From Patescibacteria group bacterium (GTDB lineage Bacteria > Patescibacteriota > Minisyncoccia > Phycocordibacterales > JBBTRF01): a stretch of DNA of 64,000 nt. Positions 4,672 through 56,578 of this stretch are shown here, one piece after another (the first letter of the stretch is position 1; each line of letters begins with the position of its first letter). The position numbers and the translations under genes are program-made. The DNA is taken from contig JBBTRF010000001.1 in the NCBI GenBank assembly GCA_038065315.1, positions 161,642 to 225,641 on the forward strand, read 5' to 3'. The notes beneath the pieces were generated by a model, which saw nothing but the letters and a program-made list of their open reading frames with translations, did not search any database and had not been told where the DNA came from.

Positions 4672-4800
4672 AACTGAGAAAATAATACATACCTATAATA
4701 AAAATGTCAAGGGCCCATGATGGTTGAATAGCTTGTATCTACTCAAGGGTATTGACCAGATTGTGCAGCTCGGTCTTGTCGGCCTAGGTAATAGTGCAAA

Positions 4801-5544: not shown

Positions 5545-5603
5545 ACAGCACTGAATATTATATCATGTCTCAATCGAGCGCCGGCACTCGAGTAATAGCT
5601 TTT

Positions 5604-8600
5604 CTAGAACTCGTTGAGGTCCGGATTGGTACGAACGGTCACGGTGATTTCAGATACCGATTTTGGAGAACCTGTGAGTACGTTGACTCCCTTGGTGAAG
5701 ATCTTGAGGGTGTACTTGTAGACGCCCTCGGTGTTGAGCGGACCGCGGATCAAAATAGTCGGTGGAACAATAGAGCTGTAGGTCTGCTGTGAGAGTGCGT
5801 TTCCGGAAACACCAGAGCCTGCTGGACCGCTCTGAGTGATGAAGTAGACATCGTCTGTGTTGCCACCGGAGATACCGTAACGCATCGCCACCGCTCGGCC
5901 TTTCTGTGTTGTGACGGAAGATTTATAGGCACTCGCATCCGAAGGCGCGGCCGAATTATTTGTCGCGATTGGTGCCGCGCCGAAATTCACATTTGAATCG
6001 GTGTTTTCCTGAGGCACGGCTGGACAGCTGATGAGTTGCGAGCTGTTCACTGCCAACGAAGCATCGGAAACTGAGACAGTGACGAACTGGCCAGGCTGTG
6101 CTGCTTGTGTCGGAGGGGTACCTGTCCAGGTATATGAATTGGTCGTCTGGGAGATAGGAGAATGGAGCTCGGAGTCGGTACCTGTAGATCGAATCCAATT
6201 AAACTTGTATGGTTGGTTGCCCTTAAACGTACCATCCAGAGTCGCTGTCCATGTCCAGTCGCTACCGGCACGTGTCGGTGCCGCGCAAGTCAGACCAAGA
6301 ATACTCGAGGTTTCGCAGACGCCAATACACGAGGCGCCACCGCCGATGACTATATTATTGGCACCACCGCTGCCGCCGATTGGCAAAATCGTGACCGTAG
6401 CACTTGCCGATGCGGTGCGCGATCCCGAAGTGACGGTGAGTGTGCCGGTCTTTGTTCCTGCCGTAGGATAACTAGTGCTGGTGTTGGTATCGGAGCCCGA
6501 GATACTGCCATCACCAGACCACGCATAGGTACATGGGGTGTATCTCGCATCGCTACAACCATCCACGACAGATGCCCATGAGATTGCTTCGTTAACATAT
6601 GCAGTTGCCGGGCTAGCTGTGACTGCAACAGCTAGGTCAGGTGGCAGTGGATCAGGTTCTGGAGCAACACTGATCTCTGGACAGATAACAACAAGTGTTC
6701 GGCCGCCGGAAGAAACCGACACGTCTCCGTATTTAATACCGGGAGTCGTATACTTGTTCGATGCTGTGGAAGCATTCCCCTTCGGACCTTCAACATCAGA
6801 ACCAGACCATGTGTAGGTATATGCTCCGTTACCTCCGGCGACATTGGTTGTACGCCAAGTAGCGATTGCGCCAACCATCGGCGAGGTCGGCGCGACGCAG
6901 GTCGCTACGATATTTGGCTGCGGTGTCGGATCTGAAGGAACGAGAATACCGAAGTGGATCCAGCCGAGTACTGTGGAACCCCAAGCGTAGCCAGTATAAT
7001 GACGACTACCGTCGAGCTCTGTAATGATCTGCGCTCCATATGGACCAGCCGCCGTAATGCCGCCCAGACTGATCCAGCCGCTAAAACCACCCTTTGGATC
7101 CGGGTTCGATGCAGTATAGGTCGCTCCGCCGGTGTCGGAGCAGGTACTTGGATTCTGTGCGCCAGAACAGACACGCGCCCAACCGGTCATGCGGCCACTG
7201 AGAGGGTCCACTTTCGCATTGGTCTGTGTGGTACCTGGCGCGACAGTCGAATTCGGCATTGACGCTGTGTTCAGCCCACCAAATTTGATCCAACCAACAT
7301 TCGATGCCCAGACATAGCCGGTGAGGTTCCCATAAATGTCGCGATTCACTCCGTAATCACCACTTGGTGCGGCTTCATTAGTGCTACTGAAGCTCAACCA
7401 GCCGATCGTCGAAGACCACGCCCAGCCAGAGAGTGAAGTCGGGTTAGCGAAGGTCGGAGTATTGGCATCAACGTTCGGATTTGGTGGTGTATTTGGGTTT
7501 GGGGTAGGATTTGGCGGCGGAATAACTGGGGCTGGCGGATTGACCGTGAGCAACACCTGGATCGCACCAAGTGCTCTGCCGTTGTCATACAGAGCAAAGG
7601 CGAGCGGTGTTCCAACACCGGTCACGGTCGGTGCTGAGGGTGTAGCGGTAATGACAAGAGAAACATTGCAGGTCGGATTCGGAGTACAGGATGTTGGAGA
7701 GAATGAGTAACTAATGCCAACCGGTAGCTGCATCCCGGGCGCAGCGGTGAAGGTCACCGGCACGCTCGGCGCACCCGAGTTGTTGGTGATAAAGATCTGA
7801 GTATTGACACTCTCCCCCTTCACCACGGAGACATTATAGGAGTCGGTTTTGGAGACATTGAATGTCGACGGCATCGAAACGGTAAACGTAACCGTTAGAT
7901 CGGAGAGATTGACGTTTCCGTTCGTGTCGCGACAGCGAATTGAGTACGAACGACTCGTGCCATCGACAAGGCCCGTGATGGTAGCAGAATGGGTCATTCC
8001 TGTGTCCCACGCTGTGAAGTTATTGTTCATCGCCGAATAAGTAGTGTCGACTCCTGCGGCATATCTACAAGTCGCCACATCATTGGTTGTAATGGAAAGA
8101 TTCGCATTGATGGTACCCGCAGGGAGCAATACAGGGGTCACGTTCGGAGTGACTAGGGTGCGAATTGGGGCACCGGAACATTTGTTTTGATGAGTAGTGG
8201 TTGCTGATAAAAATACATCCGCTGTATTCAAAAGGCAATCTACACTTTTCCCCAAAGTATCCATGTTTCCAGTGACAGATACCCCGGAATTTTTATATTC
8301 AGCACCAGAAGTCAAAATCACCTTTCGCATAGAAAAATAACGATAACTTTCTTGTAGTAGATTTGTTGATTGATTGAAACGACTATCAAAAATATTGTCA
8401 GAAATTTCTAGCCCCTCAACCTCTGTAATCAATAGTGCAGAATTTTGAAATTCCCCTATCGGACTTGAGATAAACCTAATATCATTATTGGCGACACGAA
8501 AATTCTTCAATTCTCGTGCATACGTACTTGGCGGGTAATACAAAGAATCGCTCGGATTAAACAGGTTACGGATAATTCGAATACCTGCTCGTGCACCTTC

Positions 8601-9923
8601 ATTCACAGGAACGAGAGTTATCTCATTATTGTGAATGTTATAGCCAATCTTTTTGAAATTTGGCAATCGATCTACAAAAATATCTATACCACGAGACACA
8701 CCTAAAAAGTGATTATTGTATATTTCGAGATTATAATCCTGCCACCAGTCAGAGTAATATCCCGCAGCAATATTTTCGCCAATATTATTAAACACTTTTC
8801 CACCATATGTGTGGTGTACCGAATATCCTTGGAAAGCGCTATCTTCGCCATTTACGCCAGTAAAGCGAATAGTGTTGTTCGCAATAACCGAGCGATTCAT
8901 AAAGACGTCCTTGCGCGACGTGTGCGCAGGATCATCGTTCGTACCATTAGAATTCCAAGAGCCGGTAATGTTAAAAACAGTTGACAGACCTTGCCTATTC
9001 CTCAATGAGGAATGTAGGTTGCTCTCCTCATAAACAGAGTTGACAATTCGAGAACAGTGAACGTCGGTCGTATCTCCAGTACAGGAGGCATTGTATCTCA
9101 CATTTGGATCAGCGACGCCATGTTCAGAAAGGAGCAGCAAGATTCCAAAAGATTCTGTCCCGCCGGTTCCATAATAATTGCCAATATTTTTTAATCTAAT
9201 ACCATCTGCAAAATTTCCTTCTCCGAACAACTGAACACCGTGTATCCTCGTCCTGTTTTCAGGCACAGCTTTATTGAACGGAGCCGAGTTAAACTTCTCA
9301 ACCAGAGTCGAGTAATTGGCATCGATGGTCAGATTCTTGATACCCTCCGCACTTGGAACCGCCCTCACGCCACCAACCCATTTGTATCCATCACCCACAA
9401 TCACCGAAATATCTGCCAATCTCATTTTGCTGCTTGCAGTAAATCTCGCGTCATCGAGCTTGATAATCGTCCCGTCCCGAGATTCTCCCACGATAGATGC
9501 GTTGCTTGGCAAAGTCCACTGAGGGAGGCAGCCGTTCGAAGTGCCACAGGTGTTGTTGGTAGAAAAACCAGCCGTAAGGTACGTGCCATTTTTCAAATGT
9601 ATTACCAATTTTGTATCTGACGGCTTGTCCTTAAGGGCATAATTTGCACTATTCACGCCCAATATGTTGGACATGACATAATCAATGCTTCCCATCGGCG
9701 CGCCGTATGGATTACCAACACTACCATCTCCACCAAAGACGGAAGGATCGGTAAAGGCGGCGCCCGCTACTTTTACATACACATCAACAAGAGTAGTGTT
9801 TGCAGGCGTTGGACTTTGCGCAAATAGAGACGACCCGAAAAAAATTACGCCAATAAAAAGAAAAATCCCACCAACGCCACAGAGTTTCCATAGTCGCATA
9901 CAGTGAATTATACAGCACAGCAA
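5604..9923 (-). CDS. Giant secreted/cell-surface protein (1439 aa): signal/TM anchor, right-handed parallel beta-helix region, Pro-rich linker, GW-type tandem repeats, Ig/PKD-like Ser/Thr-rich C-terminal region
   Basis: N-terminal hydrophobic segment LFIGVIFFGSSLFAQSP; many N-x-[ST]/NN..I repeats typical of pectate-lyase-like beta-helices (NNTIRF, NNDIRF, SDNIFD); PPAPVIPPPNPTPNPNTPPNPN linker encoded near 7470-7545; four GWI/LxF repeats; long T/S/G-rich C-terminus. Confidence 0.7.
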   Translation of the reverse strand: MLCCIIHCMRLWKLCGVGGIFLFIGVIFFGSSLFAQSPTPANTTLVDVYVKVAGAAFTDPSVFGGDGSVGNPYGAPMGSIDYVMSNILGVNSANYALKDKPSDTKLVIHLKNGTYLTAGFSTNNTCGTSNGCLPQWTLPSNASIVGESRDGTIIKLDDARFTASSKMRLADISVIVGDGYKWVGGVRAVPSAEGIKNLTIDANYSTLVEKFNSAPFNKAVPENRTRIHGVQLFGEGNFADGIRLKNIGNYYGTGGTESFGILLLLSEHGVADPNVRYNASCTGDTTDVHCSRIVNSVYEESNLHSSLRNRQGLSTVFNITGSWNSNGTNDDPAHTSRKDVFMNRSVIANNTIRFTGVNGEDSAFQGYSVHHTYGGKVFNNIGENIAAGYYSDWWQDYNLEIYNNHFLGVSRGIDIFVDRLPNFKKIGYNIHNNEITLVPVNEGARAGIRIIRNLFNPSDSLYYPPSTYARELKNFRVANNDIRFISSPIGEFQNSALLITEVEGLEISDNIFDSRFNQSTNLLQESYRYFSMRKVILTSGAEYKNSGVSVTGNMDTLGKSVDCLLNTADVFLSATTTHQNKCSGAPIRTLVTPNVTPVLLPAGTINANLSITTNDVATCRYAAGVDTTYSAMNNNFTAWDTGMTHSATITGLVDGTSRSYSIRCRDTNGNVNLSDLTVTFTVSMPSTFNVSKTDSYNVSVVKGESVNTQIFITNNSGAPSVPVTFTAAPGMQLPVGISYSFSPTSCTPNPTCNVSLVITATPSAPTVTGVGTPLAFALYDNGRALGAIQVLLTVNPPAPVIPPPNPTPNPNTPPNPNVDANTPTFANPTSLSGWAWSSTIGWLSFSSTNEAAPSGDYGVNRDIYGNLTGYVWASNVGWIKFGGLNTASMPNSTVAPGTTQTNAKVDPLSGRMTGWARVCSGAQNPSTCSDTGGATYTASNPDPKGGFSGWISLGGITAAGPYGAQIITELDGSRHYTGYAWGSTVLGWIHFGILVPSDPTPQPNIVATCVAPTSPMVGAIATWRTTNVAGGNGAYTYTWSGSDVEGPKGNASTASNKYTTPGIKYGDVSVSSGGRTLVVICPEISVAPEPDPLPPDLAVAVTASPATAYVNEAISWASVVDGCSDARYTPCTYAWSGDGSISGSDTNTSTSYPTAGTKTGTLTVTSGSRTASASATVTILPIGGSGGANNIVIGGGASCIGVCETSSILGLTCAAPTRAGSDWTWTATLDGTFKGNQPYKFNWIRSTGTDSELHSPISQTTNSYTWTGTPPTQAAQPGQFVTVSVSDASLAVNSSQLISCPAVPQENTDSNVNFGAAPIATNNSAAPSDASAYKSSVTTQKGRAVAMRYGISGGNTDDVYFITQSGPAGSGVSGNALSQQTYSSIVPPTILIRGPLNTEGVYKYTLKIFTKGVNVLTGSPKSVSEITVTVRTNPDLNEF

Positions 9924-9948
9924 CGGCCGAGACTGTGGATAGTGTGCT

Positions 9949-11106
9949 CTACATCCCCTCTTTTTTCAATTCTTCGATCGCTTTCTTGGCCGCCTTCGAG
10001 AGGTGTTTCGGCATTTCGATGGAGATCTTCACAAAAAGATCACCGCGGCGGTTTTTGCTCCCGCCGATCGGCACGCCGCGCCCCTTTACACGAAGTTGTT
10101 CGCTGTGAGTGATACCGGCCGGGATGCTGAGTTGGATATCGCCATCGAGCGTGGTAAATGTTTTCACTGCACCGAGAAGTGCTTCGGAAAGCTTAATACC
10201 GAGCGAGGCATGTAAGTCGGCGCCATCGCGCTCAAAAAGCGGGTGCGGCACGACGTGGATCTTCACGTAGAGATCGCCAGAAGAGCCGGTGCCGCCGCCA
10301 GCCAGTGTTTCGCCCTTGCCGGCCATGCGGAGCATCTCGCCGTCGTTGATGCCAGCCGGAATGACTACCTCGAGATTCTCCTGCCTGTCGTACACGCCTG
10401 CACCGCGGCAGATCTTGCATTTTTCCTTTGGTATCGTACCTTTCCCAGCACAGGTTGGGCAAGTGGCTGTGGTACTCACATTGCCGAGGAAGGTGCGGCG
10501 CACCTCTTGTACCTTGCCGCGTCCTTTGCAGGTGTCACAGGTCTCGATTTTTGTTCCCGGCTCGCCCCCTGTGCCATTGCAATGGTCGCATGCCGCAGTG
10601 CGACTAAAACGTAGCTCACGAATAGAGCCGAAGACAGCATCCTTGAACGGAATTTCGATATCGATCGACATATCGCGGCCCTTCTGACTGCGACCGCGGC
10701 CACCTCGTGCGCCTCCTGCCCCGCGCCCGCTTGAACCGCCAGTGCCGAAAATATCGCCAAAGATATCGCCAATGTCGAATTCGATGTTCTGCGAGCCACC
10801 GAAGCCTTGGGTGAATTGCGAAAAATCAAAGCCATCGAAACCACCGGCTTGGCCACTGAAGGGATTACCTCCTCCGCCGGAGCCTCCACCAAAACCTGGG
10901 CCCGACGAACCAAATCGGTCGTATTGTGCACGCTTCGCATCGTCCGACAAGGTCGAATACGCCTCATTTGCTTCTTTGAAGCGCGCCTCGTTGCCACCCT
11001 TCTTGTCTGGGTGATGTTCATGCGCGAGCTTACGGAACGCCTGCTTGATCTCGTCTTTCGAGGCACTCTTTTCGACTCCGAGTGTTTTGTAATAGTCTTT
11101 TGACAT
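9949..11106 (-). CDS. dnaJ: Chaperone DnaJ (J domain, G/F-rich region, 4x CxxCxGxG zinc finger, C-terminal domains)
   Basis: MSKDYYKTLGV...HHPDK J-domain; Gly/Phe-rich segment; CDHCNGTG, CDTCKGRG, CPTCAGKG, CKICRGAG repeats. Start chosen at the internal Met with a DnaJ-typical N-terminus (ATG at 11106); the ORF track starts 8 codons earlier. Confidence 0.9.
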   Translation of the reverse strand: MSKDYYKTLGVEKSASKDEIKQAFRKLAHEHHPDKKGGNEARFKEANEAYSTLSDDAKRAQYDRFGSSGPGFGGGSGGGGNPFSGQAGGFDGFDFSQFTQGFGGSQNIEFDIGDIFGDIFGTGGSSGRGAGGARGGRGRSQKGRDMSIDIEIPFKDAVFGSIRELRFSRTAACDHCNGTGGEPGTKIETCDTCKGRGKVQEVRRTFLGNVSTTATCPTCAGKGTIPKEKCKICRGAGVYDRQENLEVVIPAGINDGEMLRMAGKGETLAGGGTGSSGDLYVKIHVVPHPLFERDGADLHASLGIKLSEALLGAVKTFTTLDGDIQLSIPAGITHSEQLRVKGRGVPIGGSKNRRGDLFVKISIEMPKHLSKAAKKAIEELKKEGM

Positions 11107-11199
11107 TTTAGATTTTTTGAACCTTGACACTATACCATACGGTGTGTAACTATTCTATTCAGTCAGTTGTTTTAGAGGGTTGGCTTCAGAAAGGAAGCC

Positions 11200-11529
11200 G
11201 TGGTGTCCCGAACAATACACCTAGCATCGTTAATCATGATCGTCATCTTGAAAGACCGGAGACTTTTCGCCATCCAGTGCCTCGTCTCAATTGCAATCAT
11301 GCTGAGCGCATATCTCGAGCCGAGGTATTTTGCGATAACCTTTGGCGCTTGGTTCCTGTTCTGCCTGCTGATTCTGCTCGTTTACACAATCAGCACGCCT
11401 GCCGAAGACCTGTTGGGGCTCAAGCATGAGATGCAATTCATCGTGCTGTTTGGCACCCCGATAATCATCCTCGGAATCACGAAGGCTCTTTTTACCATAA
11501 GGCGAACGGACGCCGCACCTAAGACCTGA
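11200..11529 (+). CDS. Small multi-pass membrane protein, hypothetical
   Basis: 109-aa ORF with three hydrophobic helices, in the divergent gap between dnaJ and dnaK, followed by a hairpin plus T-run. Confidence 0.35.
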   Translation: MVSRTIHLASLIMIVILKDRRLFAIQCLVSIAIMLSAYLEPRYFAITFGAWFLFCLLILLVYTISTPAEDLLGLKHEMQFIVLFGTPIIILGITKALFTIRRTDAAPKT

Positions 11530-11544
11530 TCGCGTTATCTACCT

Positions 11545-11625
11545 CACTCCCCTCCTCCATTATCTCCACGACTCAGTCTTTGTACTAGGTCATGGAGAGT
11601 AGGAAGAGGGGGGTTTTTTTATTTT
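11545..11625 (+). terminator. Putative rho-independent terminator (G/C-rich imperfect hairpin followed by GGGGGGTTTTTTTATTTT)
   Basis: CTCCCCTCCTCC...GGAGAGTAGGAAGAGGGGGG followed by a T7 run, immediately downstream of the 11200..11529 ORF. Confidence 0.35.
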
Positions 11626-11669
11626 CTGATTTTCAGGAGCCTAGTGGAGAGGTGTCTGCGGCCATTTTT

Positions 11670-11730
11670 GAGTAGGTGCGGATTTATCATACTTTTCTCA
11701 TACTTTCGTATGAAAAATCCGATACTACTC
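11670..11730. repeat. Palindromic intergenic element, copy 1 (GAGTAGGTGCGGATTTATCATAC...GTATGAAAAATCCG...TACTC), just downstream of dnaK
   Basis: Shares inverted arms CGGATTT(T/A)TCATAC / GTATGAAAAATCCG and internal TTTTCTCATAC units with the copies at 14191-14249 and 62817-62887. Confidence 0.6.
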
Positions 11731-11760
11731 TTTTTCGCTGCGCCACCCCGGCTGCTTCAG

Positions 11761-13698
11761 CTATTTCTTCTCCCCATCTTTACCGCCTTCCTTGAACTCC
11801 GCATCGCGGACTGGGCCGTCAGCATCTTTCTTGTCGCCCTGCGCAGTGTCGGCCCTTGAGGCCTCGCCGTTTGCTCCGGCGCCTGCCGCGCCCGCACCAG
11901 CCTTGCTCATCGCCTCGCCAACTTTGGAGAGCTCGGTCGAGAGAGCTTCGGTTGCGCTCCTGATCTTCGCAAGATCAGCACCATCTTTCACCTGCTTGAG
12001 GTCAGCGGTCTTGTCCTCGACACCCTTGCGGACATCAGCAGGCACTTTATCGCCCGCATCCTTGAGCGCCTTCTCGCTGGTGTAGATCATCTGCTCGGCG
12101 ACATTTTTTGCCTCGACTGCCTCACGCTTCTTCTGGTCGTCAGCACTGTGCATTTCCGCATCCTTCTGCATCTTCGCGACCTCTTCCTTGCTCAGGCCGG
12201 AGCTTGCGGTAATCTTGATCGAGTTCGACTTGCCGGTGGTCTTGTCCTTGGCAGTCACATTCAAGATACCATTGGCATCGATGTCAAAAGACACCTCCAC
12301 CTGCGGCATACCGCGAGGAGCCGGTGGAATACCGTCGAGAGTGAACTTGCCGAGCGACTTGTTGTCCGCCGCCATAGCACGCTCGCCCTGAGTGATGTGG
12401 ATTTCCACAGAGGTTTGATTGTCCGCCGCGGTCGAGAACACCTGAGACTTCTGTGTCGGGATAGTAGTGTTCTTCTCGATGAGCTTCGTCGCGACGCCAC
12501 CCATAGTTTCAATGCCGAATGAAAGTGGGATCACGTCGAGCAAGAGCACGTCCTTCACGTCGCCGGCGAGAATACCGCCCTGAATAGCGGCACCGATCGC
12601 CACGACTTCGTCTGGGTTCACTCCCATGTGGAGCTCCTTTCCGAAGAAGGCCTTCACCGCTGCGAGCATGGCTGGCATACGAGTCTGCCCACCCACCATC
12701 ACCACTTCGTTGATATCGGCCACCTTGAACGGCGATGCTTCCATCGCACGCTTGGTGATCATCATTGCTCGATCGATGAATTCTCGAGTGAGAACCTCGA
12801 GCGTTGATCGGGTCATAGTCTTCACGAGGTGCTTCGGGCCGTCACTGCCAGATGAGATGAACGGAATGTTGATCTCGGTCTGCACCGCGGTGGAGAGCTC
12901 GATCTTGGCCTTTTCTGCGGCCTCGTCGAGTCGCTGCACTGCCAAGGGATCCCTCATGAGGTCGATACCGTTTTCCTTCTTGAAATCATCCGCGAGCCAT
13001 TTGATGATCTTCTGGTCGATGTCTTTTCCGCCCAAGTGCGCGTCACCGTCGGTGGACTTCACCTCCACGAGGTCGGCGCCCACTTCGAGCACGGAGATGT
13101 CGAAGGTACCGCCTCCGAAGTCGAAGACGACGATCTTTTCATCCTTCTTTTTGTTGAAGCCGTATGCGAGGGCGGCTGCGGTCGGCTCGTTGATGATACG
13201 CATCACTTCGAGGCCGGCGATCTTGCCTGCGTCCTTGGTGGCCTGTCGCTGTGCGTCGTTGAAGTATGCCGGGACGGTGATGACGGCCTGAGTCACCTTC
13301 TCGCCGAGTCGCGCTTCCGCGTCGGTCTTGAGTTTGGTGAGGATCATGGCCGAGATCTCCTCCGGTCGGAGCCATTTGTCGGCCATTTTCACTTCCACAC
13401 CACCGTTCGCAGACTTCTGCACTTCAAAAGGCACCGATGCCTTGTCTTTTTGCACCGCGTCTTCGTCAAATGTGTGTCCGATGAAGCGCTTGATCTGGAA
13501 GACGGTGTTCTTTGGGTTGGTGACAGCTTGTCGCCGCGCAAGGAGGCCGACGAGTCGGTCGCCGGTCTTTGATTGAGCGACAATAGATGGAGTGGTGCGC
13601 GCACCCTCGGCATTTTCGAGGATCTTCGGGCTGCCCGCTTCCATCACCGCGACTGCTGAGTTGGTGGTACCGAGGTCGATACCGATGATTTTTGACAT
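11761..13698 (-). CDS. dnaK: Chaperone DnaK (Hsp70)
   Basis: [30 protein letters not shown] and the EEVD-less C-terminus; 645 aa, full-length Hsp70. Confidence 0.95.
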
Positions 13699-36099: not shown

Positions 36100-36117
36100 A
36101 GGAGTAAACTATACAAC

Positions 36118-36147
36118 AAAAGACGAAAATGAAAAAGCCGACAACGT
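36118..36147 (-). terminator. Rho-independent terminator (GCCGACACACGTTGTCGGC followed by a T-run, read on the minus strand)
   Basis: Perfect 7-bp stem, 5-nt loop, and TTTTTCATTTTCGTCTTTT downstream on the minus strand; sits between the small membrane ORF and the leuS start. Confidence 0.6.
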
Positions 36148-44931: not shown

Positions 44932-45636
44932 TCATGCCGCAGCGGCAGATCGAGGAACCCACGGATGCTGGTGCCATGGCCGCAACTGGCTCTTAGCACT
45001 CGCCAAACGACCACGCAGATCAATCGCGCGACGCAGTGCCGAAAAAGCGGCGGCGATGTGTTCCGGCCCATCGAGATCATTGACGACGGTAGCCTGACAT
45101 TCTGAAACGCACCCCAGCTCCTTTTTAGCTGATGCGAGACGTGCAGCAACCTCCTCTTCGGAGATGGGCTTTCCTTGCGCCAATGCACGAACCCGCAAGT
45201 GCCGTTCCACGGTTGCCATTGAAGCGTAGATGAAGATCGCCAACAGGCCGTGACGGATCAACTCATCATCATGCGCCTTGATCTGCCGCAAGCCTTGAAT
45301 ATCAATCGCGCAGACCACATCCTCACCGGCAGCGAGACTTTCCAGGATCGGCGCTTTGGGTGTGCCATAGAGATTACCGTGCACCTCAGCATATTCGAGG
45401 AATAGTCCCTCCTGCTGACGTTTCATGAACACTTCACGAGTAAAGAAGTAGTAATCCTTCCCATCTTCTTCATCGGGACGTGGAGCGCGTGTCGTGCAGG
45501 TGATCTGCCGACGACCATACCCTCCCTTCACCAACATGTCCACAAAGGTCGTTTTCCCGACTGCTGTCGGACCAACAAGGCAGGTGAACCTACCGTTTTG
45601 TGGGCTGTGTTTTTGACCAGGACTGGAACTTGCCAT
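44932..45636 (-). CDS. gmk: Guanylate kinase
   Basis: LVGPTAVGKTT P-loop; TTRAPRPDEEDGKDYYF; EYAEVHGNLYGT. Confidence 0.8.
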   Translation of the reverse strand: MASSSPGQKHSPQNGRFTCLVGPTAVGKTTFVDMLVKGGYGRRQITCTTRAPRPDEEDGKDYYFFTREVFMKRQQEGLFLEYAEVHGNLYGTPKAPILESLAAGEDVVCAIDIQGLRQIKAHDDELIRHGLLAIFIYASMATVERHLRVRALAQGKPISEEEVAARLASAKKELGCVSECQATVVNDLDGPEHIAAAFSALRRAIDLRGRLASAKSQLRPWHQHPWVPRSAAAA

Positions 45637-48949: not shown

Positions 48950-49606
48950 TTATTTCCCAGGAAACAGCCCGCAAACACTGCGCACAACCACCACCAACAC
49001 CGCCCCAGATACATCCATCAGCATATCTTTCTGCGCATCCCAAATATCTCCCTGCGAGCCGAGAAAGGCGGCACCGGCCTCACCACCATAAATCGCCGCA
49101 TAGCCCCACTCGATCCATTCATAGAAGACGGCGACAAAAGCGATGGCGAATACGGCGTAGGTGTTGGCGAGCCACTGTTTTGCCACCAAGCCACGCATCA
49201 CGAGATATTCAATGATCGGTAGCGCGTAGAAGCCCACAACAAAGTGGCCGATCCGATCGAACATATTGCGCTCGTAGCCAAAAAAATCGTTGAACCAGTC
49301 GAACGGCACGAGTTCAAAGGTGTAGTGCCCACCGATCGTGTGCCAGAACGGCAGGATGAACATCAGGACGTAGGCGGTGCTGGAGAAGCGGATGTTTCTG
49401 ATATAGAGAACCGTGATGAAGATGACGAGTGCGAGGATCGGCCCGTTTTCAACATACCAGACGGCACGGGAGTATGGGTGGATACCAGCGACGATGAATT
49501 CGATGGTGTAGGCGGCGAGGAGAGTATGTGGGAGGTATTTTTTGAGCATAGATACATTATACAACAAAAAAAATCTGCTTTCGCGGATTTCTTTTTTGGA
49601 CATCAC
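48950..49606 (-). CDS. Multi-pass membrane protein, hypothetical (YjdF/DUF2238-like composition)
   Basis: About six TM helices rich in Trp/Tyr/Phe; no catalytic motif. Confidence 0.5.
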   Translation of the reverse strand: MMSKKEIRESRFFLLYNVSMLKKYLPHTLLAAYTIEFIVAGIHPYSRAVWYVENGPILALVIFITVLYIRNIRFSSTAYVLMFILPFWHTIGGHYTFELVPFDWFNDFFGYERNMFDRIGHFVVGFYALPIIEYLVMRGLVAKQWLANTYAVFAIAFVAVFYEWIEWGYAAIYGGEAGAAFLGSQGDIWDAQKDMLMDVSGAVLVVVVRSVCGLFPGK

Positions 49607-49622
49607 GATATTTGATTTTATA

Positions 49623-49865
49623 CTAGTTTATATAACCCGCGTCTTTCATTTTGCCAAAAAATGTAAGTAGGAAGAAAATCAGAAATATGACTAGAGCAGC
49701 AAATTCTGGACTATGATCCAACCGAAATCCCAACCATATTAATACCCAACCCAACAGATAGGTCAATATTGGCGAAATAACTGTAAGAGAATACATCACC
49801 GCATAATTACAGCACGGGGTCTTTGAGTTTTTCATTTTATTATTTCTAATTTTCTTTCTACACAA
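49623..49865 (-). CDS. Small two-TM membrane protein, hypothetical (island)
   Basis: 80-aa ORF; hydrophobic helices VISPILTYLLGWVLIWLGF and AALVIFLIFFLLTFF; followed on the minus strand by a hairpin plus T-run (49568-49600). Confidence 0.4.
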   Translation of the reverse strand: MCRKKIRNNKMKNSKTPCCNYAVMYSLTVISPILTYLLGWVLIWLGFRLDHSPEFAALVIFLIFFLLTFFGKMKDAGYIN

Positions 49866-50167
49866 TCCCTAATCCATATATCATCATTAATGAAATTACC
49901 ACTATCATCCACATAGCCTTTATTCTTAAGACCGATCATAATTAATTCTGGTGATAAAGTAGACTTATCGAAAAATTTGATATCCTCCTCCTTTTCCTCT
50001 CTGCATTCTTTCTGAAGAGTAAGTTTTAAATTCACTAGATTTTCACCATCTTGCTTTTCAATCATATATTTTTGTTTACTAACTTCTGTAGAATAATAGA
50101 AACCACCCAATATACATGCTGCAATTATAATTCTCCAAGATACTGGTAGTTTATTTAATTTATTCAT
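49832..50167 (-). CDS. Small secreted/lipoprotein-like hypothetical (island)
   Basis: Signal segment with a lipobox-like IAAC; Glu/Lys-rich mature region. Confidence 0.4.
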   Translation of the reverse strand: MNKLNKLPVSWRIIIAACILGGFYYSTEVSKQKYMIEKQDGENLVNLKLTLQKECREEKEEDIKFFDKSTLSPELIMIGLKNKGYVDDSGNFINDDIWIRDCVERKLEIIK

Positions 50168-50295
50168 AGGAATTTTAGTTATTTAATACATGCCCTCTTA
50201 AACATTTTTCATAACTAGACTTATCTAACGTTGTTAGCCTATCAGTATCAGATCCTCTGAGAGTATTCGGGGGTAATTTTATACATTTAGTTTAA

Positions 50296-50796
50296 TTATA
50301 CGGCAGTTTGTTGTTTATGGTCCTGTTCTTCTTCATCTTTATTAACAAAATACTGTCCAAGTATTCTACTTCCGTACGTTGTTATCATTCCTACACATAA
50401 CCAGAAGAGGACGGTCCAAGATCCGTCAAATGCTGTGGCCAGTAATGACAAAGGTAGTATTCCTATTCCTGCAAACAATAAACCTACTACAACCCAAAAA
50501 CCTCCCCAAATGATGTATGTAAACAACAGTGCCCTTAACCAGAGTTCCAAACCAAAAATATAAGAAGATATATACATTCCTAGTCCTGAATATCCACGAG
50601 TTTTTCTAACAAAACAAAGGGGCAGAAGAACGAGTAAGTTTACGAAGAAAAGAAAGCCAGAGATTATTTGTACTATGGGTAAGACTGTTGCGGTAAACCA
50701 AATTGCCCCCTTGAAAACTAGACCGATAATGAGACCGAATGCAACAATTATAACTACTCCCAACAAACCCGAAGACCATTCTTTTATTTTACTCAT
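50296..50796 (-). CDS. Multi-pass membrane protein, hypothetical (island)
   Basis: Five hydrophobic helices; start taken at MSKIKEWSSG. Confidence 0.45.
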   Translation of the reverse strand: MSKIKEWSSGLLGVVIIVAFGLIIGLVFKGAIWFTATVLPIVQIISGFLFFVNLLVLLPLCFVRKTRGYSGLGMYISSYIFGLELWLRALLFTYIIWGGFWVVVGLLFAGIGILPLSLLATAFDGSWTVLFWLCVGMITTYGSRILGQYFVNKDEEEQDHKQQTAV

Positions 50797-50797
50797 A

Positions 50798-51106
50798 TTA
50801 TTTTTTATTAGTTTTAATAAATAAGGACACAAAGAACAAAACCGCCCCGGTTACATCGAAAATCTGCCACATATCTTTTGAGAAATAAAATGGGAATATG
50901 GGGTTAAATAGTATCGCTAGAGCAATAAACAGCCACATAAAAACGGTCTTATGATTTTCAAAGTAACTAAAAGCAAGATAGGCACTGCAGATTGTTGTTA
51001 ACCAACGAGTTAGCTGATAGTAGGAGTATGGGTGGTCTCCTAATGCCCCAAGCAATGTCCCAAATGCGATTATCTTAAACCAATTTCCTTTGAGAGAGTT
51101 CTTCAT
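50798..51106 (-). CDS. Small three-TM membrane protein, hypothetical (island)
   Basis: 102 aa; tightly abuts the downstream membrane gene (stop/start 50796/50798). Confidence 0.45.
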   Translation of the reverse strand: MKNSLKGNWFKIIAFGTLLGALGDHPYSYYQLTRWLTTICSAYLAFSYFENHKTVFMWLFIALAILFNPIFPFYFSKDMWQIFDVTGAVLFFVSLFIKTNKK

Positions 51107-51288
51107 ATAAAAGTTATATTTATGCTAATTTTACTCCACAAACCATAACCATACAATCAAGATTAAATTATGCAACAAAAAATCTGCTTACGAAGCTACG
51201 TTCTGCAATAAATCCCGCAACTTTTGAAAGTTTGAATCGCTCAAATCCTTCCTTAATTTTTTCTTTTGTCCATACATCATTCATATAT

Positions 51289-51807
51289 TTAAAAATTGCC
51301 TTCCATTATCTTTATTATTCTTTTTAGTATTGGCATGTTTGGAATGACAGCATCAAGAACACTCCTTGAAAAAAGTCTCTTACAGTCCCCATCAGTTAGA
51401 CTCCTTCTTCCGTTCAGGTGGTTACTCTGAAAGGACCGTTTACAGTCTGATGAAGATCGGTTTGCGTGATTTGTGGCTGGTTCGAGAACGGTCAAAAGCA
51501 GTCCTTCAATACAAGGACTGCTTCCAACCAATTCAAAACCCTTAACTTTTGCTTTATTTTTTACAGGACTTGTCCATTCACGATCTGTATCTAGCAATAT
51601 GAAAGAGTGGTTATATTTCAGATTACCTTTTACACGTAGCGCTTTTTCCAGAATGTATGACACATCTTTTCCTCCAGCATAATCTACTCTTACGCTGGTT
51701 TTGTTTACCGCATACAGCGATCGAATGTGCTTTAGGAAGATTCTTTCAGCTTCTCCCTCTCCAAAAGCAAACACTGTGGTTTTCTGTGCCCTAAGAGTTC
51801 TTGCCAT
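51289..51807 (-). CDS. DUF4276/RloB-like (TOPRIM-like) small protein; putative nuclease partner of the upstream ATPase
   Basis: TVFAFGEGEAERIFLKHIRSLY matches the family's h-h-h-EG-x-x-E-x-x-F N-terminal motif; ILLDTD matches the TOPRIM DxD. Start set at MARTLRAQK (51807), 4 nt after the ATPase stop; the ORF track's longer start would overlap by 70 nt. Confidence 0.5.
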   Translation of the reverse strand: MARTLRAQKTTVFAFGEGEAERIFLKHIRSLYAVNKTSVRVDYAGGKDVSYILEKALRVKGNLKYNHSFILLDTDREWTSPVKNKAKVKGFELVGSSPCIEGLLLTVLEPATNHANRSSSDCKRSFQSNHLNGRRSLTDGDCKRLFSRSVLDAVIPNMPILKRIIKIMEGNF

Positions 51808-51811
51808 AATT

Positions 51812-53002
51812 TTAAACCTTAGGAATAGCCCCGTAAGCCCCAGCCATATACTTAGCGTAGAAGTTGTCGTCTGCTCTGACACCTTTTACATCAGCCAAGT
51901 TCCAAGCCTCACTGATACCCTTATCATTCTTTTCGACCAAAATGATCTGCTGTTTATCTAATTTGTTTAGTATCTGCACACTGTGAGTGCTGAACAAAAG
52001 CTGTGCTTTATTTGGATTGTAGGTCTCTGAAGAGAACAAATTGATGATTTCTGGAATCATTAGTGGGTGAAGATCATTATCCATTTCATCTAGGACGGCA
52101 ACTCCACCACTTTGCAATACAACCAAGATGGTTCTAAGCAAGAAGAGAAGGTTCTGAGTTCCCCTAGATTCATACTGGAAAGAGAGAGAGTACTCCTTAC
52201 TTCCATCGATGTACTTGTGAGATCCTGTTGGAACATAGATAACCCTTTTGTCTGATGTCTCGACCTTCTGAATATTTATTTTTGCTAAACCTAGATCAAA
52301 CTTGCTTAGTATTTCTTCTGCTTTTGCTTTAATTTCGGGATTTTCCTGATAGTATTTTATTGCATCGGCGAGGCGTTCCATTGGGACTTTACCGCCCTCA
52401 AAAATGTTTGTCTGTATAGCACTGAGGTAGTTGGTAATTTCAATACTGTGCTTATGATTTATCTGGCGTGCTGTAGAAATAATTGAAGCGTTACTACGAG
52501 TAATTTGGGCAAAGTTTGCTGGAACATCAAACCTTTTAAAGTTGAAGTCGTATTCATTCTTTTCCTTATTCCATGACCTATCGAAGAGAATCTTGAACCT
52601 CTTTTCCTCTTTGATACTTAACTTCTCATTGATAATTTTCTTGGTGTTTAATTCAAGTTCGTATTTATATATCTTTTTGTTTGTTTCAAACTCAATATCA
52701 AAGAAGCTTGATCTTTTATCTGAGTCAGCACAGAACAAGAAGGGTTTGAATGCGATGTCTTTATCGGGGGTAAGAGCAGAGAATGAATCTACCACAAACC
52801 ACTTCATAAAAGCCAAACTTTTTAGAAGATTAGTTTTACCCGAAGCATTTGGTCCAACAAATGCCATAAATTTAGTGAGCTTATTCCCAAACTCATCAGT
52901 AAAATATGCATCCGTGTCAGGTGCATTTTTGTTGACCACCAGATCAATCTCGGCACCCTCCATAAAGGAGTAGAAGTTTTTGAATGATAGTTTGTGGATC
53001 AT
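51812..53002 (-). CDS. AAA/ABC-type ATPase of the AAA_15/AAA_21 (OLD/AbiLi/AriA-like) family
   Basis: Walker A GPNASGKTN near the N-terminus; split Walker B VAVLDEMD plus downstream LFSTHS (D-loop/H-loop) near the C-terminus; ABC-signature-like ESRGTQNLL; about 250-aa insertion between the Walker motifs. Confidence 0.65.
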   Translation of the reverse strand: MIHKLSFKNFYSFMEGAEIDLVVNKNAPDTDAYFTDEFGNKLTKFMAFVGPNASGKTNLLKSLAFMKWFVVDSFSALTPDKDIAFKPFLFCADSDKRSSFFDIEFETNKKIYKYELELNTKKIINEKLSIKEEKRFKILFDRSWNKEKNEYDFNFKRFDVPANFAQITRSNASIISTARQINHKHSIEITNYLSAIQTNIFEGGKVPMERLADAIKYYQENPEIKAKAEEILSKFDLGLAKINIQKVETSDKRVIYVPTGSHKYIDGSKEYSLSFQYESRGTQNLLFLLRTILVVLQSGGVAVLDEMDNDLHPLMIPEIINLFSSETYNPNKAQLLFSTHSVQILNKLDKQQIILVEKNDKGISEAWNLADVKGVRADDNFYAKYMAGAYGAIPKV

Positions 53003-53175
53003 GTGTTTGTTAGTACATTAATTACATTGTTATCCTAGCAGATTTAAGCACACTTTGCAAGCTTTTATACAAAATATTGTTTAAAATAGTTTAAAACATC
53101 CTATTTTAAGGCATTTTTGGCTAGATAAGATCTTTGTTCGGGAGCGATAAGGTGGATGTGCTGAGGCACATCCAC

Positions 53176-53532
53176 CTAGTTTCTGATTCGAGCATCAACA
53201 GTCTCGTAGATCTGCATATTACGTTTGCAGTTTTCGTCAAAATTACGCTGAATTTCTGCTGGTCCGATTTCTTCTCTCAGTGCCTCAAATTGCATGTACG
53301 CACTTAAGGTATAGATAGCAAGTTGCCAATCAATACCATTTGTCTGCGGACATTGATTGGCATATAATCCGTTTTTATCTTCGTACGCTGAGGAGTAAAA
53401 ATATAGAGGATTAATCTTGTCGGAAGACACTGATTTTTCTGCCGGTTTGAGTTTTAAAAAAAATACTGCTCCAAGGCAGACTAGTAAGACTATCGCTAAC
53501 ATTATATATTTGTATTGCTTAGTATTTTTCAC
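53176..53532 (-). CDS. Signal-anchored secreted hypothetical (island)
   Basis: IMLAIVLLVCLGAVFFL TM; Cys pair in the mature region; a 10-bp perfect hairpin GGTGGATGTGctgaggCACATCCACC overlaps its stop. Confidence 0.4.
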   Translation of the reverse strand: MKNTKQYKYIMLAIVLLVCLGAVFFLKLKPAEKSVSSDKINPLYFYSSAYEDKNGLYANQCPQTNGIDWQLAIYTLSAYMQFEALREEIGPAEIQRNFDENCKRNMQIYETVDARIRN

Positions 53533-53579
53533 AAATTGTGATTATTTAATATCATCTAAAAAATCTTTGATTTTATCAT

Positions 53580-54173
53580 TTACCTAATTTCAAAAGAATC
53601 AACGAATTTATCATAATTTGCTGGAGTAGCATTTTCACTTTCAACACTTAGCAAATATATCGTTTGGCCATTTAAAATTATTTTTCCTTTTATAAATGTT
53701 CCGAAGCTTTTTGTCTCCATTGAAAAATCAAGGGAATGATTACCTTTGAAATTTCCAGAGTCAGAAGAAATCAGACTATTTCCGCTATCCGTCTTCAGCA
53801 TATTACTTAGTGATCCTTTTAGAAGATTATCCGGGTTAGATACATCAATGGGAGAGGAATAAATAATTTTAGAAATCAGGAAAGCATACCCCGAAATTTT
53901 GGAGGTGTACATATCTTGGGTGTAACTCATGTTACTATCAGGAACTGGAAAATTGTAATTCTTGTGTTCAGGCTCGGAAGGAAGCGACACGTTAAAATCT
54001 GCACTCGGTGAACTATATGCAATCCAATAGTTATTTATATTTTGTTGAGTACTAGTACTATTTAAATGTCCAAATACAAAATATAGTAAGCCGACAACTA
54101 GAATTGCCCCGAAAATGGGAGAAAGATTAAAATCTTCTTTTTTCTCAATATTATTAATGTTTTCTTTTTCCAT
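53580..54173 (-). CDS. Signal-anchored secreted hypothetical (island)
   Basis: SPIFGAILVVGLLYFVFG TM; Ser/Asn-rich ectodomain. Confidence 0.4.
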   Translation of the reverse strand: MEKENINNIEKKEDFNLSPIFGAILVVGLLYFVFGHLNSTSTQQNINNYWIAYSSPSADFNVSLPSEPEHKNYNFPVPDSNMSYTQDMYTSKISGYAFLISKIIYSSPIDVSNPDNLLKGSLSNMLKTDSGNSLISSDSGNFKGNHSLDFSMETKSFGTFIKGKIILNGQTIYLLSVESENATPANYDKFVDSFEIR

Positions 54174-54174
54174 A

Positions 54175-54387
54175 TTATTTCTTCCTAAAATACTTTATTA
54201 AATCTGCAGTTCCCGTAATTAGGCCAATAATAATCAAGAGATTAAATATACCGACAGCGGCGCCTATCGTAGTTGAAGCCCCTCCCAGTAGGTTAGATAT
54301 GACATAGGCTACAATTCCTAGAGGAATTGCGTAATTCCACTTCCATATTTTTTTATCAAGGTCTTTTATGAATTTTTTATATTCCAT
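54175..54387 (-). CDS. Small two-TM membrane protein (island, adjacent to the tRNA 3' end)
   Basis: 70 aa; Gly-zipper-like GGASTTIGAAVG. Confidence 0.4.
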   Translation of the reverse strand: MEYKKFIKDLDKKIWKWNYAIPLGIVAYVISNLLGGASTTIGAAVGIFNLLIIIGLITGTADLIKYFRKK

Positions 54388-54400
54388 GCCGATGTTTCTT

Positions 54401-54476
54401 TGGTGGACCCTACAGGACTCGAACCTGCCACCCCCTCATTGCAAATGAGGTGCTCTACCAGATGAGCTAAGGGCCC
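54401..54476 (-). tRNA. tRNA-Ala (anticodon UGC), CCA encoded
   Basis: The minus-strand sequence GGGCCCTTAGCTCATCTGGTAGAGCACCTCATTTGCAATGAGGGGGTGGCAGGTTCGAGTCCTGTAGGGTCCACCA folds as a cloverleaf. It has a 7-bp acceptor stem with a G3:U70 alanine identity pair, D-loop AGCTCATCTGGTAGAGC, anticodon loop TTTGCAA and T-arm GGTTCGAGTCC. Confidence 0.9.
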
Positions 54477-54594
54477 GTCTTTCCAACCGTCGCATCATAC
54501 CAAAAAGAACCTAAAAAAACAACCAGTGGAATTAAAATATTTCCTAGGGGGACACTATACAAACATTTCAAAAAGTTGTATGGTTGATATATAA

Positions 54595-55554
54595 ATGAAA
54601 AAATTACTATTTGTATTCGTCGGTTTGTCAACTTTATTATTTTTATTTTCCGTAGTAAATCCTCTGTATGCCTATGTTTCTGTTAAAGGCTACTACAAAA
54701 GTAACGGCACTTATGTTGCACCCCACGTACGCAGTAGTCCAAATGGCTTGAAATCTGACAACTACAGTTATACTCCGAGCCAGGGTGCGTATAATAAAAC
54801 GTACGGCACGAGAGGTGCGGAATGGGACACCCCAACCTACATAACGGATCCTAGCTACTATCAAGGAAAGTCGTTGTATGAATCTGGGAATAATAATTAC
54901 GGAAGCTATTATCAATACCCGACCACACCCACCTGTCCGACGAATTCATATTACGACGGAGTATCTTCCTGTAAGTGCAATTATGGCTATATTGTGAACG
55001 GAGGAAGTTGTGTTAATGCTAATAATTATTGCTCAGGTCAGCTTGGGATAATGTCTCAGTATAATAGCTTGTTAAGTAGATGTGAGTGTATGAGCGGCTA
55101 TGAATACAATGGGTCGAGCTGTGCTTATAAAAGTACAAGCTATTCGAGTTCCTCTGGATATTCCGGAGCATCATCTTACGCTTGTCCAGCAAATTCACAC
55201 ACATCACTAACTGAACCGACAAAATGTGACTGTAATTCCGGATATCAAGTCAATTCAACAAGGACAGCCTGCGTTCTGCCAAATAATGCTTTGAATAACC
55301 AAACCTGTATAAATTCATACGGCGCATACAGTAATTGGGACGGTACAAAGACAGCCACAGGACTAATAAATTGCGCTTGTCAGGGTGGATATGATTGGAA
55401 TAATTCAAAGAGTACCTGCGTAGCAATCGTAGCCAAACCACAATATCAAAATGATGAGCTTATTGGAAAAAATTATTATTTAACCAATCGTACATGCGTC
55501 GGTCTTTCTGATAATCAATATTCCTATTGCATTGGCTACGCATACAACCACTAG
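54595..55554 (+). CDS. Secreted cysteine-rich repeat protein (C-x-C-x2-GY-x3-5-C modules, Tyr/Ser/Asn-rich)
   Basis: Signal peptide MKKLLFVFVGLSTLLFLFSVVNPLYA; at least four repeats (CKCNYGYIVNGGSC, CECMSGYEYNGSSC, CDCNSGYQVNSTRTAC, CACQGGYDWNNSKSTC); AT-rich codon usage like the island. Confidence 0.6.
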   Translation: MKKLLFVFVGLSTLLFLFSVVNPLYAYVSVKGYYKSNGTYVAPHVRSSPNGLKSDNYSYTPSQGAYNKTYGTRGAEWDTPTYITDPSYYQGKSLYESGNNNYGSYYQYPTTPTCPTNSYYDGVSSCKCNYGYIVNGGSCVNANNYCSGQLGIMSQYNSLLSRCECMSGYEYNGSSCAYKSTSYSSSSGYSGASSYACPANSHTSLTEPTKCDCNSGYQVNSTRTACVLPNNALNNQTCINSYGAYSNWDGTKTATGLINCACQGGYDWNNSKSTCVAIVAKPQYQNDELIGKNYYLTNRTCVGLSDNQYSYCIGYAYNH

Positions 55555-55555
55555 T

Positions 55556-56578
55556 TCAATACTTCCCCCTCGCCAACCCCACCAAATGCTCGACGAGCTC
55601 AGTCAGCCCAGAGCCCACCGCCTGCATCGCCCTGGGAAACAGCGAATGTTCGGTGAGGCCGGGAAGCGTATTCACTTCCAAAAAATACACGCCGCGGCGC
55701 GGGTGCACAATGAAATCCGAGCGGGAATAATGCTTCAGGCCGAGCGAACGATGTACTTCACGAGCCATGCGCTGAATCTCGGCACTCTCGGCCGCAGTGA
55801 AATTACCGGGACAGATCTCCTCGGACGCACCGCCGTATTTGGCTTCGTAGTCGAAGAAAGCGGACGCGCCGCCTTTCCGAATCTCCACCGGCGGCAAGAC
55901 ATAATGCTTCTCGCCACGGAAATGGTCGATCACCCCGCAAGTCGCCTCTTTGCCAGCGATGTATTCTTCGATTAACACCGTATCACCGTGCTCAAATGCC
56001 GAATGAATCGCCTTCTCCAACTGCTTGAGCGTTGAGACGATCGACACACCAATCGATGAACCCGCACTGGCCGGCTTTACCACAGCAGGATGAGGAAACG
56101 TTTTGAAAATCTCGGCTGCTCTTTTTGAAATATTTTGTATTTCTTCTTTTCGCAACACCAGATGCACCGCGGTTTTGATCTTCGAACCAGCGTGTTGGGT
56201 CGCATGATGCGCCAGATGCTTCTTCGTGAGCACTTTGTTCATCGCCATCGCGGAAGCCAGCGCTCCCGAGCCGGTGTAAGCGGCCTTGTATGTATCGAGC
56301 AATGTCTGAATCTTGCCGTCCTCACCGAACTCGCCGTGTAGCGCGTTGAAAATCACATCAACATGCTTCAGGATCTGCTCCGGCTTTTTTTCGACGCCGT
56401 CAAAATGCCATTTGCCGTCGCGAGTGATGAGAATATCGTGCACGCGATATTTCGAGGCTGGCAGATGCTTGATCACCGAACCGCCCGTCTTGAGCGACAC
56501 CGGATACTCAGAAGAGGTGCCGCCGCGAACAACGCCGACACGAATCTTTGAAGCTTGTGCATGCGAGCCTGCTGACAT
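55556..56578 (-). CDS. ddl: D-alanine--D-alanine ligase
   Basis: KIRVGVVRGGTSSEYPVSLKTG N-terminus; ATP-grasp motifs; 340 aa. Confidence 0.85.
   Translation of the reverse strand: MSAGSHAQASKIRVGVVRGGTSSEYPVSLKTGGSVIKHLPASKYRVHDILITRDGKWHFDGVEKKPEQILKHVDVIFNALHGEFGEDGKIQTLLDTYKAAYTGSGALASAMAMNKVLTKKHLAHHATQHAGSKIKTAVHLVLRKEEIQNISKRAAEIFKTFPHPAVVKPASAGSSIGVSIVSTLKQLEKAIHSAFEHGDTVLIEEYIAGKEATCGVIDHFRGEKHYVLPPVEIRKGGASAFFDYEAKYGGASEEICPGNFTAAESAEIQRMAREVHRSLGLKHYSRSDFIVHPRRGVYFLEVNTLPGLTEHSLFPRAMQAVGSGLTELVEHLVGLARGKY

Follow-up and report, generated by a model that had tools for sequence, protein, structure and literature searches.

Within a 64,000-nucleotide (nt) stretch of contig JBBTRF010000001.1 (hereafter, the window), which comes from an ultra-small groundwater Patescibacterium (Hainich), resembling Paceibacterota or Parcubacteria, with a genome of ~52% GC, we find an AbiL anti-phage cassette in a defense-bearing islet of a Candidate Phyla Radiation (CPR) genome. 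The islet is an AT-rich segment at 49.55-55.56 kb that, in our judgment, was probably acquired horizontally, is now immobile, and occupies the native junction of ddl and tRNA-Ala(UGC) as a patchwork of at least four cassettes (M1 to M4). M1 would comprise a secreted Cys-rich protein encoded in the gap that separates ddl from the tRNA; M2, a pair of membrane proteins (70 and 197 amino acids [aa]) followed by a 118-aa membrane protein, from 13 nt past the tRNA; M3, the complete AbiL cassette with its own conserved promoter region; and M4, four small membrane proteins, including one of family DUF6804, bracketed by a duplicated promoter segment of 29-31 nt. The cassettes most likely came from low-GC (0.31-0.40) donors of the Patescibacteria type and would have been joined by successive recombination rather than by a resident integrase. 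We were led to this reading of piecemeal assembly and present immobility by the composition of the segment, by the finding of M2 and M3, independently of each other, in low-GC contigs elsewhere, and by the lack of an integrase and of attachment (att) repeats. The original prediction, which was of one island integrated at the tRNA, is not borne out, given that the cassettes have separate histories and that the tRNA has foreign DNA on either side.

The segment is foreign in composition from end to end. Measured in 400-nt intervals, GC content was 0.49-0.57 up to 49.4 kb, 0.30-0.41 at 49.6-55.4 kb, and 0.50-0.61 beyond. The drop had been placed at 49607-55555; change points in cumulative GC fell at 49535 and 55564, a few dozen bases at most from those limits, and the sliding-window GC and tetranucleotide check proposed at the time, now run, showed both measures shifting there. 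GC at third codon positions (GC3) was 0.21-0.42 in the 11 open reading frames (ORFs) inside the segment versus 0.58-0.69 in five flanking genes (DUF2238, sigma, anti-sigma, ddl, and uvrC). Compared with the rest of the window, GC-normalized tetranucleotide usage had a Pearson r of 0.79 +/- 0.12 outside the segment and of ~0 across 49-56 kb, with z down to -6.7. Rather than being uniform, composition breaks at 49.55 and 55.56 kb in GC, GC3, and tetranucleotides alike. Further, the shifts in GC3 and tetranucleotide usage extend to the cytoplasmic AbiL genes, and GC3 is host-like (0.60-0.69) in the neighboring DUF2238 and anti-sigma genes, both of which code for membrane proteins. The genes inside lack housekeeping homologs, as had been supposed.

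The continuity of the segment is supported by 99.9-100% identical cover from contigs of several groundwater samples from Hainich, assembled independently, and from an NCBI metagenome-assembled genome (GCA_964355935.1). Three independent assemblies bridge the tRNA and both segment edges at this identity, and others bridge single edges, which rules out an assembly chimera. Five independent assemblies start or end within the tRNA gene, at 54423-54457. These breaks look like ordinary assembly-graph repeats; they occur because the tRNA sequence is identical in other species, the window tRNA matching that of one relative (L003; JBAZUA010000005.1, positions 5080-5153) at 100% over 74-75 nt even though the Ddl proteins of the two species are 55% identical. 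In one assembly (Hain_H41_01um_R2), coverage is 9x for both of the contigs that meet at the break.

The AbiL cassette (M3) and its immediate upstream surroundings consist of the following features:

51812-53002, minus strand: AbiLi, a 396-aa ABC-type (AAA_21/AAA_15) ATPase, the predicted sensor/regulator (PADLOC, Pfam)
51289-51807, minus strand: AbiLii, a 172-aa RloB-type mini-TOPRIM nuclease, the predicted effector (PADLOC, homolog alignment)
53003-53129, minus strand: conserved upstream regulatory region that travels with AbiL (DNA identity with contigs L095/L096 and L097)
53150-53177, no strand assigned: GC-rich hairpin with a 12-bp stem at the stop of the 118-aa gene, outside the AbiL edge; likely a terminator

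We assign the ATPase/TOPRIM pair to AbiL on the strength of its sequences. AbiLi matched the PADLOC AbiLi model PDLC02335 at 5.3e-77 and exceeded the gathering score of Pfam AAA_21 (2.5e-36), and its Walker A (residues 50-57), Walker B (301-306), and STH (H-loop, at 338) motifs are intact. The AbiLii gene is co-directional and begins 4 nt past the AbiLi stop. Its product, 172 aa long according to homolog alignments, matched the PADLOC AbiLii model at 9e-7; homologs at 53-67% identity carry PF13707 (RloB), residues E17, D73, and D75 of the TOPRIM domain are invariant across 33 homologs, and the computed fold is OLD/GajA-like. AbiL was the best PADLOC model for both proteins. Two adjacent co-directional genes, the first for an AAA_15/21 ABC ATPase and the second for an RloB-type TOPRIM protein, are the AbiL arrangement, and Campylobacter RloA/RloB has the same architecture. 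AbiL (AbiLi and AbiLii) was reportedly described by Deng et al. in 1999 on Lactococcus lactis pND861, and it is listed under that name in PADLOC and DefenseFinder. The genes studied here differ from those of the L. lactis plasmid in being chromosomal and in having a Patescibacterium as host, and the 172-aa AbiLii is minimal, the Pfam RloB model having 195 positions. An OLD-like TOPRIM fold has also been reported for the lactococcal AbiLii (PMC13064643).

AbiL has been grouped with PARIS, OLD, and Gabija as systems of an ABC ATPase plus TOPRIM(RloB) (PMC11464382, PMC13064643), and the pair had earlier been described as AbiL/PARIS/OLD-like; it can now be narrowed to AbiL. PARIS likewise has separate ATPase and TOPRIM genes, and AbiLi matches AriA models at 3e-37, but the AbiLi model beats the AriA model by 40 orders of magnitude. 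Moreover, the PARIS effector AriB is a DUF4435 TOPRIM protein, whereas the effector here is of the RloB type, and the 172-aa protein had no DUF4435/AriB match in Pfam or PADLOC. In OLD (class 1 P2 Old, Ts OLD) and GajA, ATPase and TOPRIM are joined in one polypeptide, in contrast to the two genes here, and Gabija additionally requires the GajB helicase, which the segment lacks. Hence, neither PARIS nor a single-chain OLD describes the pair.

How this AbiL might act can be hypothesized from its relatives, given that the ATPase and TOPRIM motifs are intact. PARIS is the likely mechanistic template; there, the nuclease is kept sequestered by the ATPase and cuts tRNA once a phage trigger has set it free (PMC11464382). 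Similarly, P2 OLD was recently reported to be a tRNase (bioRxiv 10.64898/2026.07.10.737580). By analogy with PARIS, OLD, and Gabija, AbiLi would keep AbiLii inactive and sense a phage cue. Upon infection, AbiLii would be released or activated by AbiLi and would cut host nucleic acid, possibly tRNA, thereby aborting the infection.

The AbiL cassette has moved independently of the DNA that now surrounds it. Window positions 51279-53129, including ~120 nt of conserved upstream sequence, are 87% identical at the nucleotide level to L095/L096, where the neighbors of AbiL are DpnI, NERD, Fic, and AAA_14, and identity of the block is 69% with L097 and 67% with L099. The latter two contigs have genes for recombinases of the tyrosine (integrase) and serine types and for methyltransferases. 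The homology ends at ~53120-53129 on one side, just inside the hairpin, and at ~51279-51283 on the other, at most ~10 nt from the AbiLii stop. Contigs bearing relatives of M3 have a GC of 0.29-0.45, and many AbiLi homologs bear a Patescibacteria label. Two of the low-GC contigs are dense in defense genes around AbiL: L095 at 3508-13152 (Fic, AAA_14/DUF4143, NERD, DpnI, and DUF7695) and L097 at 1772-12068 (a tyrosine integrase and two DNA methyltransferases).

Between the AbiL cassette and the tRNA lie three genes:

54175-54387, minus strand: 70-aa membrane protein, the first gene of M2, starting 13 nt past the tRNA CCA
53580-54173, minus strand: 197-aa protein with one N-terminal transmembrane segment, the second gene of M2, with few relatives
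53176-53532, minus strand: 118-aa protein of no known family, hydrophobic in a single N-terminal segment (ORF, hydropathy)

The 70-aa and 197-aa genes, which are translationally coupled, form a second unit with a history of its own. Only four relatives of the pair were found among 5.8 billion clusters, and in every one of them the 70-aa gene precedes the 197-aa gene. In one relative (protein P0158 on a Joint Genome Institute contig, L181 260-1081), the two ORFs are fused to encode a single 273-aa protein, and so the 70-aa and 197-aa proteins very probably act together. DNA homology extends exactly over 53586-54387, at 78% identity to L180 and 70% to L181, and the surroundings in both contigs differ from those in the window, with no tRNA nearby. 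The 118-aa gene lies outside this recurring unit. An AlphaFold2 model of the 197-aa protein, built from a five-sequence alignment, was unusable (predicted local distance difference test score of 50).

On the ddl side, the features are the following:

54401-54476, minus strand: tRNA-Ala(UGC) with encoded CCA (ARAGORN; Rfam, 63.9 bits)
54595-55554, plus strand: 319-aa Cys-rich secreted protein (M1), with 18 Cys and EGF-like C-x-C-x2-GY repeats

ARAGORN and Rfam agree on the tRNA, the 3' end of which faces the nine minus-strand ORFs, as described at the outset. Because the order uvrC-ddl-tRNA-Ala(UGC) is conserved in distant relatives, specifically those with Ddl 44-57% identical, the tRNA is native; the ddl-tRNA-Ala(UGC) order was present in 10 of 13 relatives. 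In most of them, the tRNA is on the same strand as ddl and follows it by only 13-350 nt, whereas the gap in the window is 1.08 kb, and therefore the Cys-rich gene was inserted 5' of the tRNA. Indeed, the segment is AT-rich on the 5' side of the tRNA as well. At 55552-55558, the plus-strand Cys-rich gene and the minus-strand ddl end in stop codons a single base apart, which places the boundary between foreign and native DNA at the end of ddl. On the 3' side, the 13 nt past the CCA (AAGAAACATCGGC) are similar to the native flanks of the relatives L004 and L009 (AACGAAACAT...), and the homology of M2 to its relatives starts precisely at the ATG at 54387. The 3' junction therefore lies just outside the tRNA, ~10-13 nt beyond the CCA, and not within it. 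Besides the tRNA, no other RNAs and no tandem repeats were detected in the segment.

The Cys-rich protein, which had been noted on this side of the tRNA, has a signal-like N-terminus and a GC3 of 0.37. It belongs to a large, scattered, modular, and unnamed family (1659 representative clusters), and a 56%-identical homolog (P0160) occurs in an unrelated gene context. Its N-terminal module consists of a signal peptide and the motif YVxVKGYYKSNGTYVAPHVRSSPNG, and it occurs alone or with other repeat numbers in hundreds of unnamed proteins. The N-terminal 75 residues also matched phrog_29674, a phage family of unknown function (E = 1.4e-6).

At the far end of the segment, next to the DUF2238 gene, are M4 and its repeats:

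50798-51106, minus strand: 102-aa DUF6804 membrane protein (Pfam PF20619, E = 5.8e-27, above the gathering score)
50296-50796, minus strand: 166-aa polytopic membrane protein with no known family (ORF, hydropathy)
49832-50167, minus strand: 111-aa protein (GC 0.28, GC3 0.21)
49623-49835, minus strand: 70-aa protein of no known family, with a pair of hydrophobic segments (GC3 0.41)
51164-51192, minus strand: direct repeat, copy A, ~58 nt upstream of the DUF6804 gene
49553-49583, minus strand: direct repeat, copy B, the DUF2238 promoter, at the left edge of the AT-rich segment

The 111-aa protein had no family match in profile searches that included Pfam, PADLOC, and PHROGs, and the 70-aa protein of M4 had a weak holin-like PHROG match (E = 0.003). 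Gene callers and homolog alignments shortened ORFs first read as 80, 178, and 197 aa to 70, 166, and 172 aa, respectively. The count of nine minus-strand ORFs after the tRNA holds; that of nine small membrane or secreted proteins besides the ATPase/TOPRIM pair does not, as there are seven plus the Cys-rich protein.

The two copies of the 29-31-nt repeat (CGwAAGCAGA-T(6-8)-GTTGyATAATkTA, minus strand) bracket M4, and its 15-mer core would be expected by chance 0.01 times. Homologs of the flanking DUF2238 protein (L100-L110) all open with M-[LI]-KKYFPH at an equivalent Met, with a TATAAT 5-20 nt upstream. The start of this gene, initially placed at 49606, is thus most likely at 49548, giving a gene of 48950-49548, and 49553-49583 is its promoter. 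Since copy B coincides with this promoter, duplication of a promoter is a simpler reading of the repeat than an att site, although the repeat may have an att-like role; it could also be a scar left where recombination brought M4 in. The short distance between TATAAT and ATG (only 5-20 nt) in these sequences suggests that the mRNAs of these bacteria may be leaderless or have very short leaders. The DUF2238 homologs are 70-79% identical in amino acids, come from genomes with a GC of 0.29-0.55, and have no neighbor in common with the window among the matches listed. A weaker third match to the repeat lies at 36105-36119.

Searches for the machinery and scars of integration returned little. No ORF of the segment has a Pfam integrase, resolvase, or transposase, and no recombinase was found in the 64-kb window by tblastn with one tyrosine and one serine recombinase or in the Pfam lists, in keeping with the initial observation that no integrase is visible. 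The intergenic gaps within the segment are 13-182 nt, leaving no room for a decayed integrase gene, and nothing points to the uncharacterized mobile type that had been floated. The absence of a direct repeat of the tRNA 3' end, first noted from the sequence alone, was upheld: its terminal 15-mer and 25-mer had no match with three or fewer mismatches in or near the segment, and local alignment of the tRNA 3' end within it gave nothing above shuffled controls. One 16/18 match to the T-arm of the tRNA (TGGCAAGTTCCAGTCCTG), at 45618-45635 on the minus strand at the start of the guanylate kinase gene, was set aside as probably due to chance; although its score was a little higher than those of 30 shuffled controls, it does not include the acceptor end and is found 4 kb beyond the compositional boundary. 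A phage origin was likewise rejected, as the only PHROG matches were those of the defense genes, the holin-like protein, and the Cys-rich N-terminus. Scans of viral contigs with three of the proteins (including that of 166 aa) found no relatives, and the 3' 22-mer of the tRNA matched viral sequences only twice, in phage tRNA regions of no relevance here.

An unlikely account, and one for which the clade offers suggestive precedents, is serial site-specific accretion, in which an integrase with its gene elsewhere would have added the cassettes one by one at the tRNA-Ala 3' end, the att repeats having since decayed or been deleted. Such a history would liken the segment to cis-mobilizable elements (CIMEs), integrase-less elements known from the literature on Streptococcus integrative and conjugative elements. 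In L003, the relative whose tRNA is identical to that of the window, four copies of the tRNA-Ala(UGC) 3' end, each with a terminator and a promoter, occur within 5135-7794; the last 19 nt of the tRNA and ~100 nt beyond (a terminator hairpin and a TTGACT-17-TATAAT promoter) are repeated at 7662-7794, while the copy at 5635-5733 is shorter and that at 6539-6579 is degenerate. Between them, the repeats mark off three small cassettes of low GC that encode 62-aa and 183-aa membrane proteins and a 110-aa zinc-ribbon protein, and none of the three contains an integrase. Further, 24 nt of the tRNA 3' end recur in L009 at 5346-5369, 163 nt downstream, and L013 has a partial copy of ~52 nt at 12432-12500, 119 nt downstream. 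With such exact repeats lying 0.1-2.5 kb downstream of the tRNA-Ala in three relatives, the 3' flank of this tRNA has probably served repeatedly as an insertion site within the clade, which gives indirect support to the earlier idea of a tRNA hot spot. In the window itself, the small membrane-protein genes begin 13 nt past the same tRNA, and M4 is bracketed by its own repeat, as accretion might predict. However, the window contains no tRNA 3' repeat, its best candidate being the 16/18 match outside the boundary; the native-like 13 nt past the CCA put the M2 junction outside the tRNA; M1 is on the 5' side of the tRNA, where this mechanism does not place DNA; and M2 and M3 are found elsewhere with no tRNA nearby.

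In a still more speculative extension, the tRNA-Ala(UGC) 3' flank after ddl in Paceibacterota may be a dedicated docking site at which short integrase-less cassettes are added by a recombinase acting in trans. Under this tentative scenario, mostly small membrane-protein cassettes, and sometimes a defense system, would be added in tandem, with each addition restoring a boundary in which the tRNA 3' end is followed by a terminator and a promoter. L003 would then be an intact array, and the window an older one whose boundaries have decayed, the 49553/51164 repeat being the last remnant. Among the relatives, the genes adjacent to the tRNA were housekeeping genes and ORFs of unknown function, with no defense genes.

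More improbable is the reading first put forward for the locus, in which one integrative island, or a prophage of which a remnant is left, inserted at the 3' end of tRNA-Ala and was subsequently stripped of both the integrase and the distal repeat. The AT-rich block is indeed contiguous and adjoins the tRNA, and AbiL cassettes elsewhere lie within 4-5 kb of tyrosine or serine recombinases. Nevertheless, each cassette has a history of its own and its own closest relatives, foreign DNA flanks the tRNA on both sides, there is no space for a decayed integrase, and neither the phage-family matches, which do not go beyond the defense genes, nor the viral contigs point to a phage. Of the marks of a tRNA-integrated island, atypical composition and adjacency to the 3' end (the first gene starting 13 nt past the CCA) are present, and an integrase and a flanking direct repeat of the tRNA 3' end are absent. 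More broadly, the segment shares atypical composition, tRNA adjacency, defense cargo, and a cassette mosaic with tRNA-associated and defense islands, with aquifer islands (PMC12455944), and with CIMEs. What sets it apart is the lack of an integrase and of flanking direct repeats, foreign DNA on both sides of the tRNA, and a length of only 6 kb. Least probable, and largely refuted, is the view that these are native genes with a GC lowered by function or expression, or else a chimera of assembly or binning joined at the tRNA, for although most of the products are membrane or secreted proteins and several assemblies break in the tRNA, the compositional shifts reach the cytoplasmic AbiL genes, the neighboring membrane-protein genes are host-like, three assemblies made independently run across the tRNA and past both edges, coverage is equal on either side, and the identity of the tRNA with those of other species accounts for the breaks.

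Several observations weigh against the immobile mosaic islet that we favor. Its donors are named from the GC content and the source names of homologs, and 7 of the 11 proteins have no predicted function. Regarding the defense pair, AbiLii scored below the gathering score of the Pfam RloB model (28.1 bits versus 31.5; 2.7e-6), and the literature gives the mode of action of AbiL as undetermined (PMC11464382, PMC13064643). Finally, no closely related genome lacking the segment, and hence no empty site, was found among the matches listed, the nearest Ddl there being 57% identical. Exact-protein look-ups returned only the same Hainich population, at 99.9-100% identity, and the distant relatives (Ddl 57% identical or less, among those matches) lack every gene of the segment but also lack the distal flank.

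The locus bears on two open practical questions, namely, how CPR bacteria resist phages and how they take up genes. These bacteria have tiny genomes and, to our knowledge, mostly lack CRISPR. Here, an assembly-verified case is provided of an intact AbiL cassette that has moved between unrelated contexts, at 87% nucleotide identity, and that has settled beside a conserved tRNA in a small foreign patch without mobility genes. Further, few OLD-type TOPRIM effectors are as small as the 172-aa AbiLii, which could make it convenient for biochemical work. The islet is nonetheless of an ordinary kind: aquifer Patescibacteria carry hundreds of genomic islands enriched in defense genes (PMC12455944), and because such islands and the AbiL family have already been described, current concepts are unchanged.

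Elsewhere in the window, two other stretches depart from the surrounding composition. Positions 1-4700 are atypical, with a GC of 0.40-0.44, and carry genes for an aminotransferase, a HAD hydrolase, a TauD-like protein, and an APH-like kinase. At 5604-9923, a 1439-aa ORF with a PKD domain has a tetranucleotide r of 0.29-0.5, and GC in its 3' part falls to 0.41.

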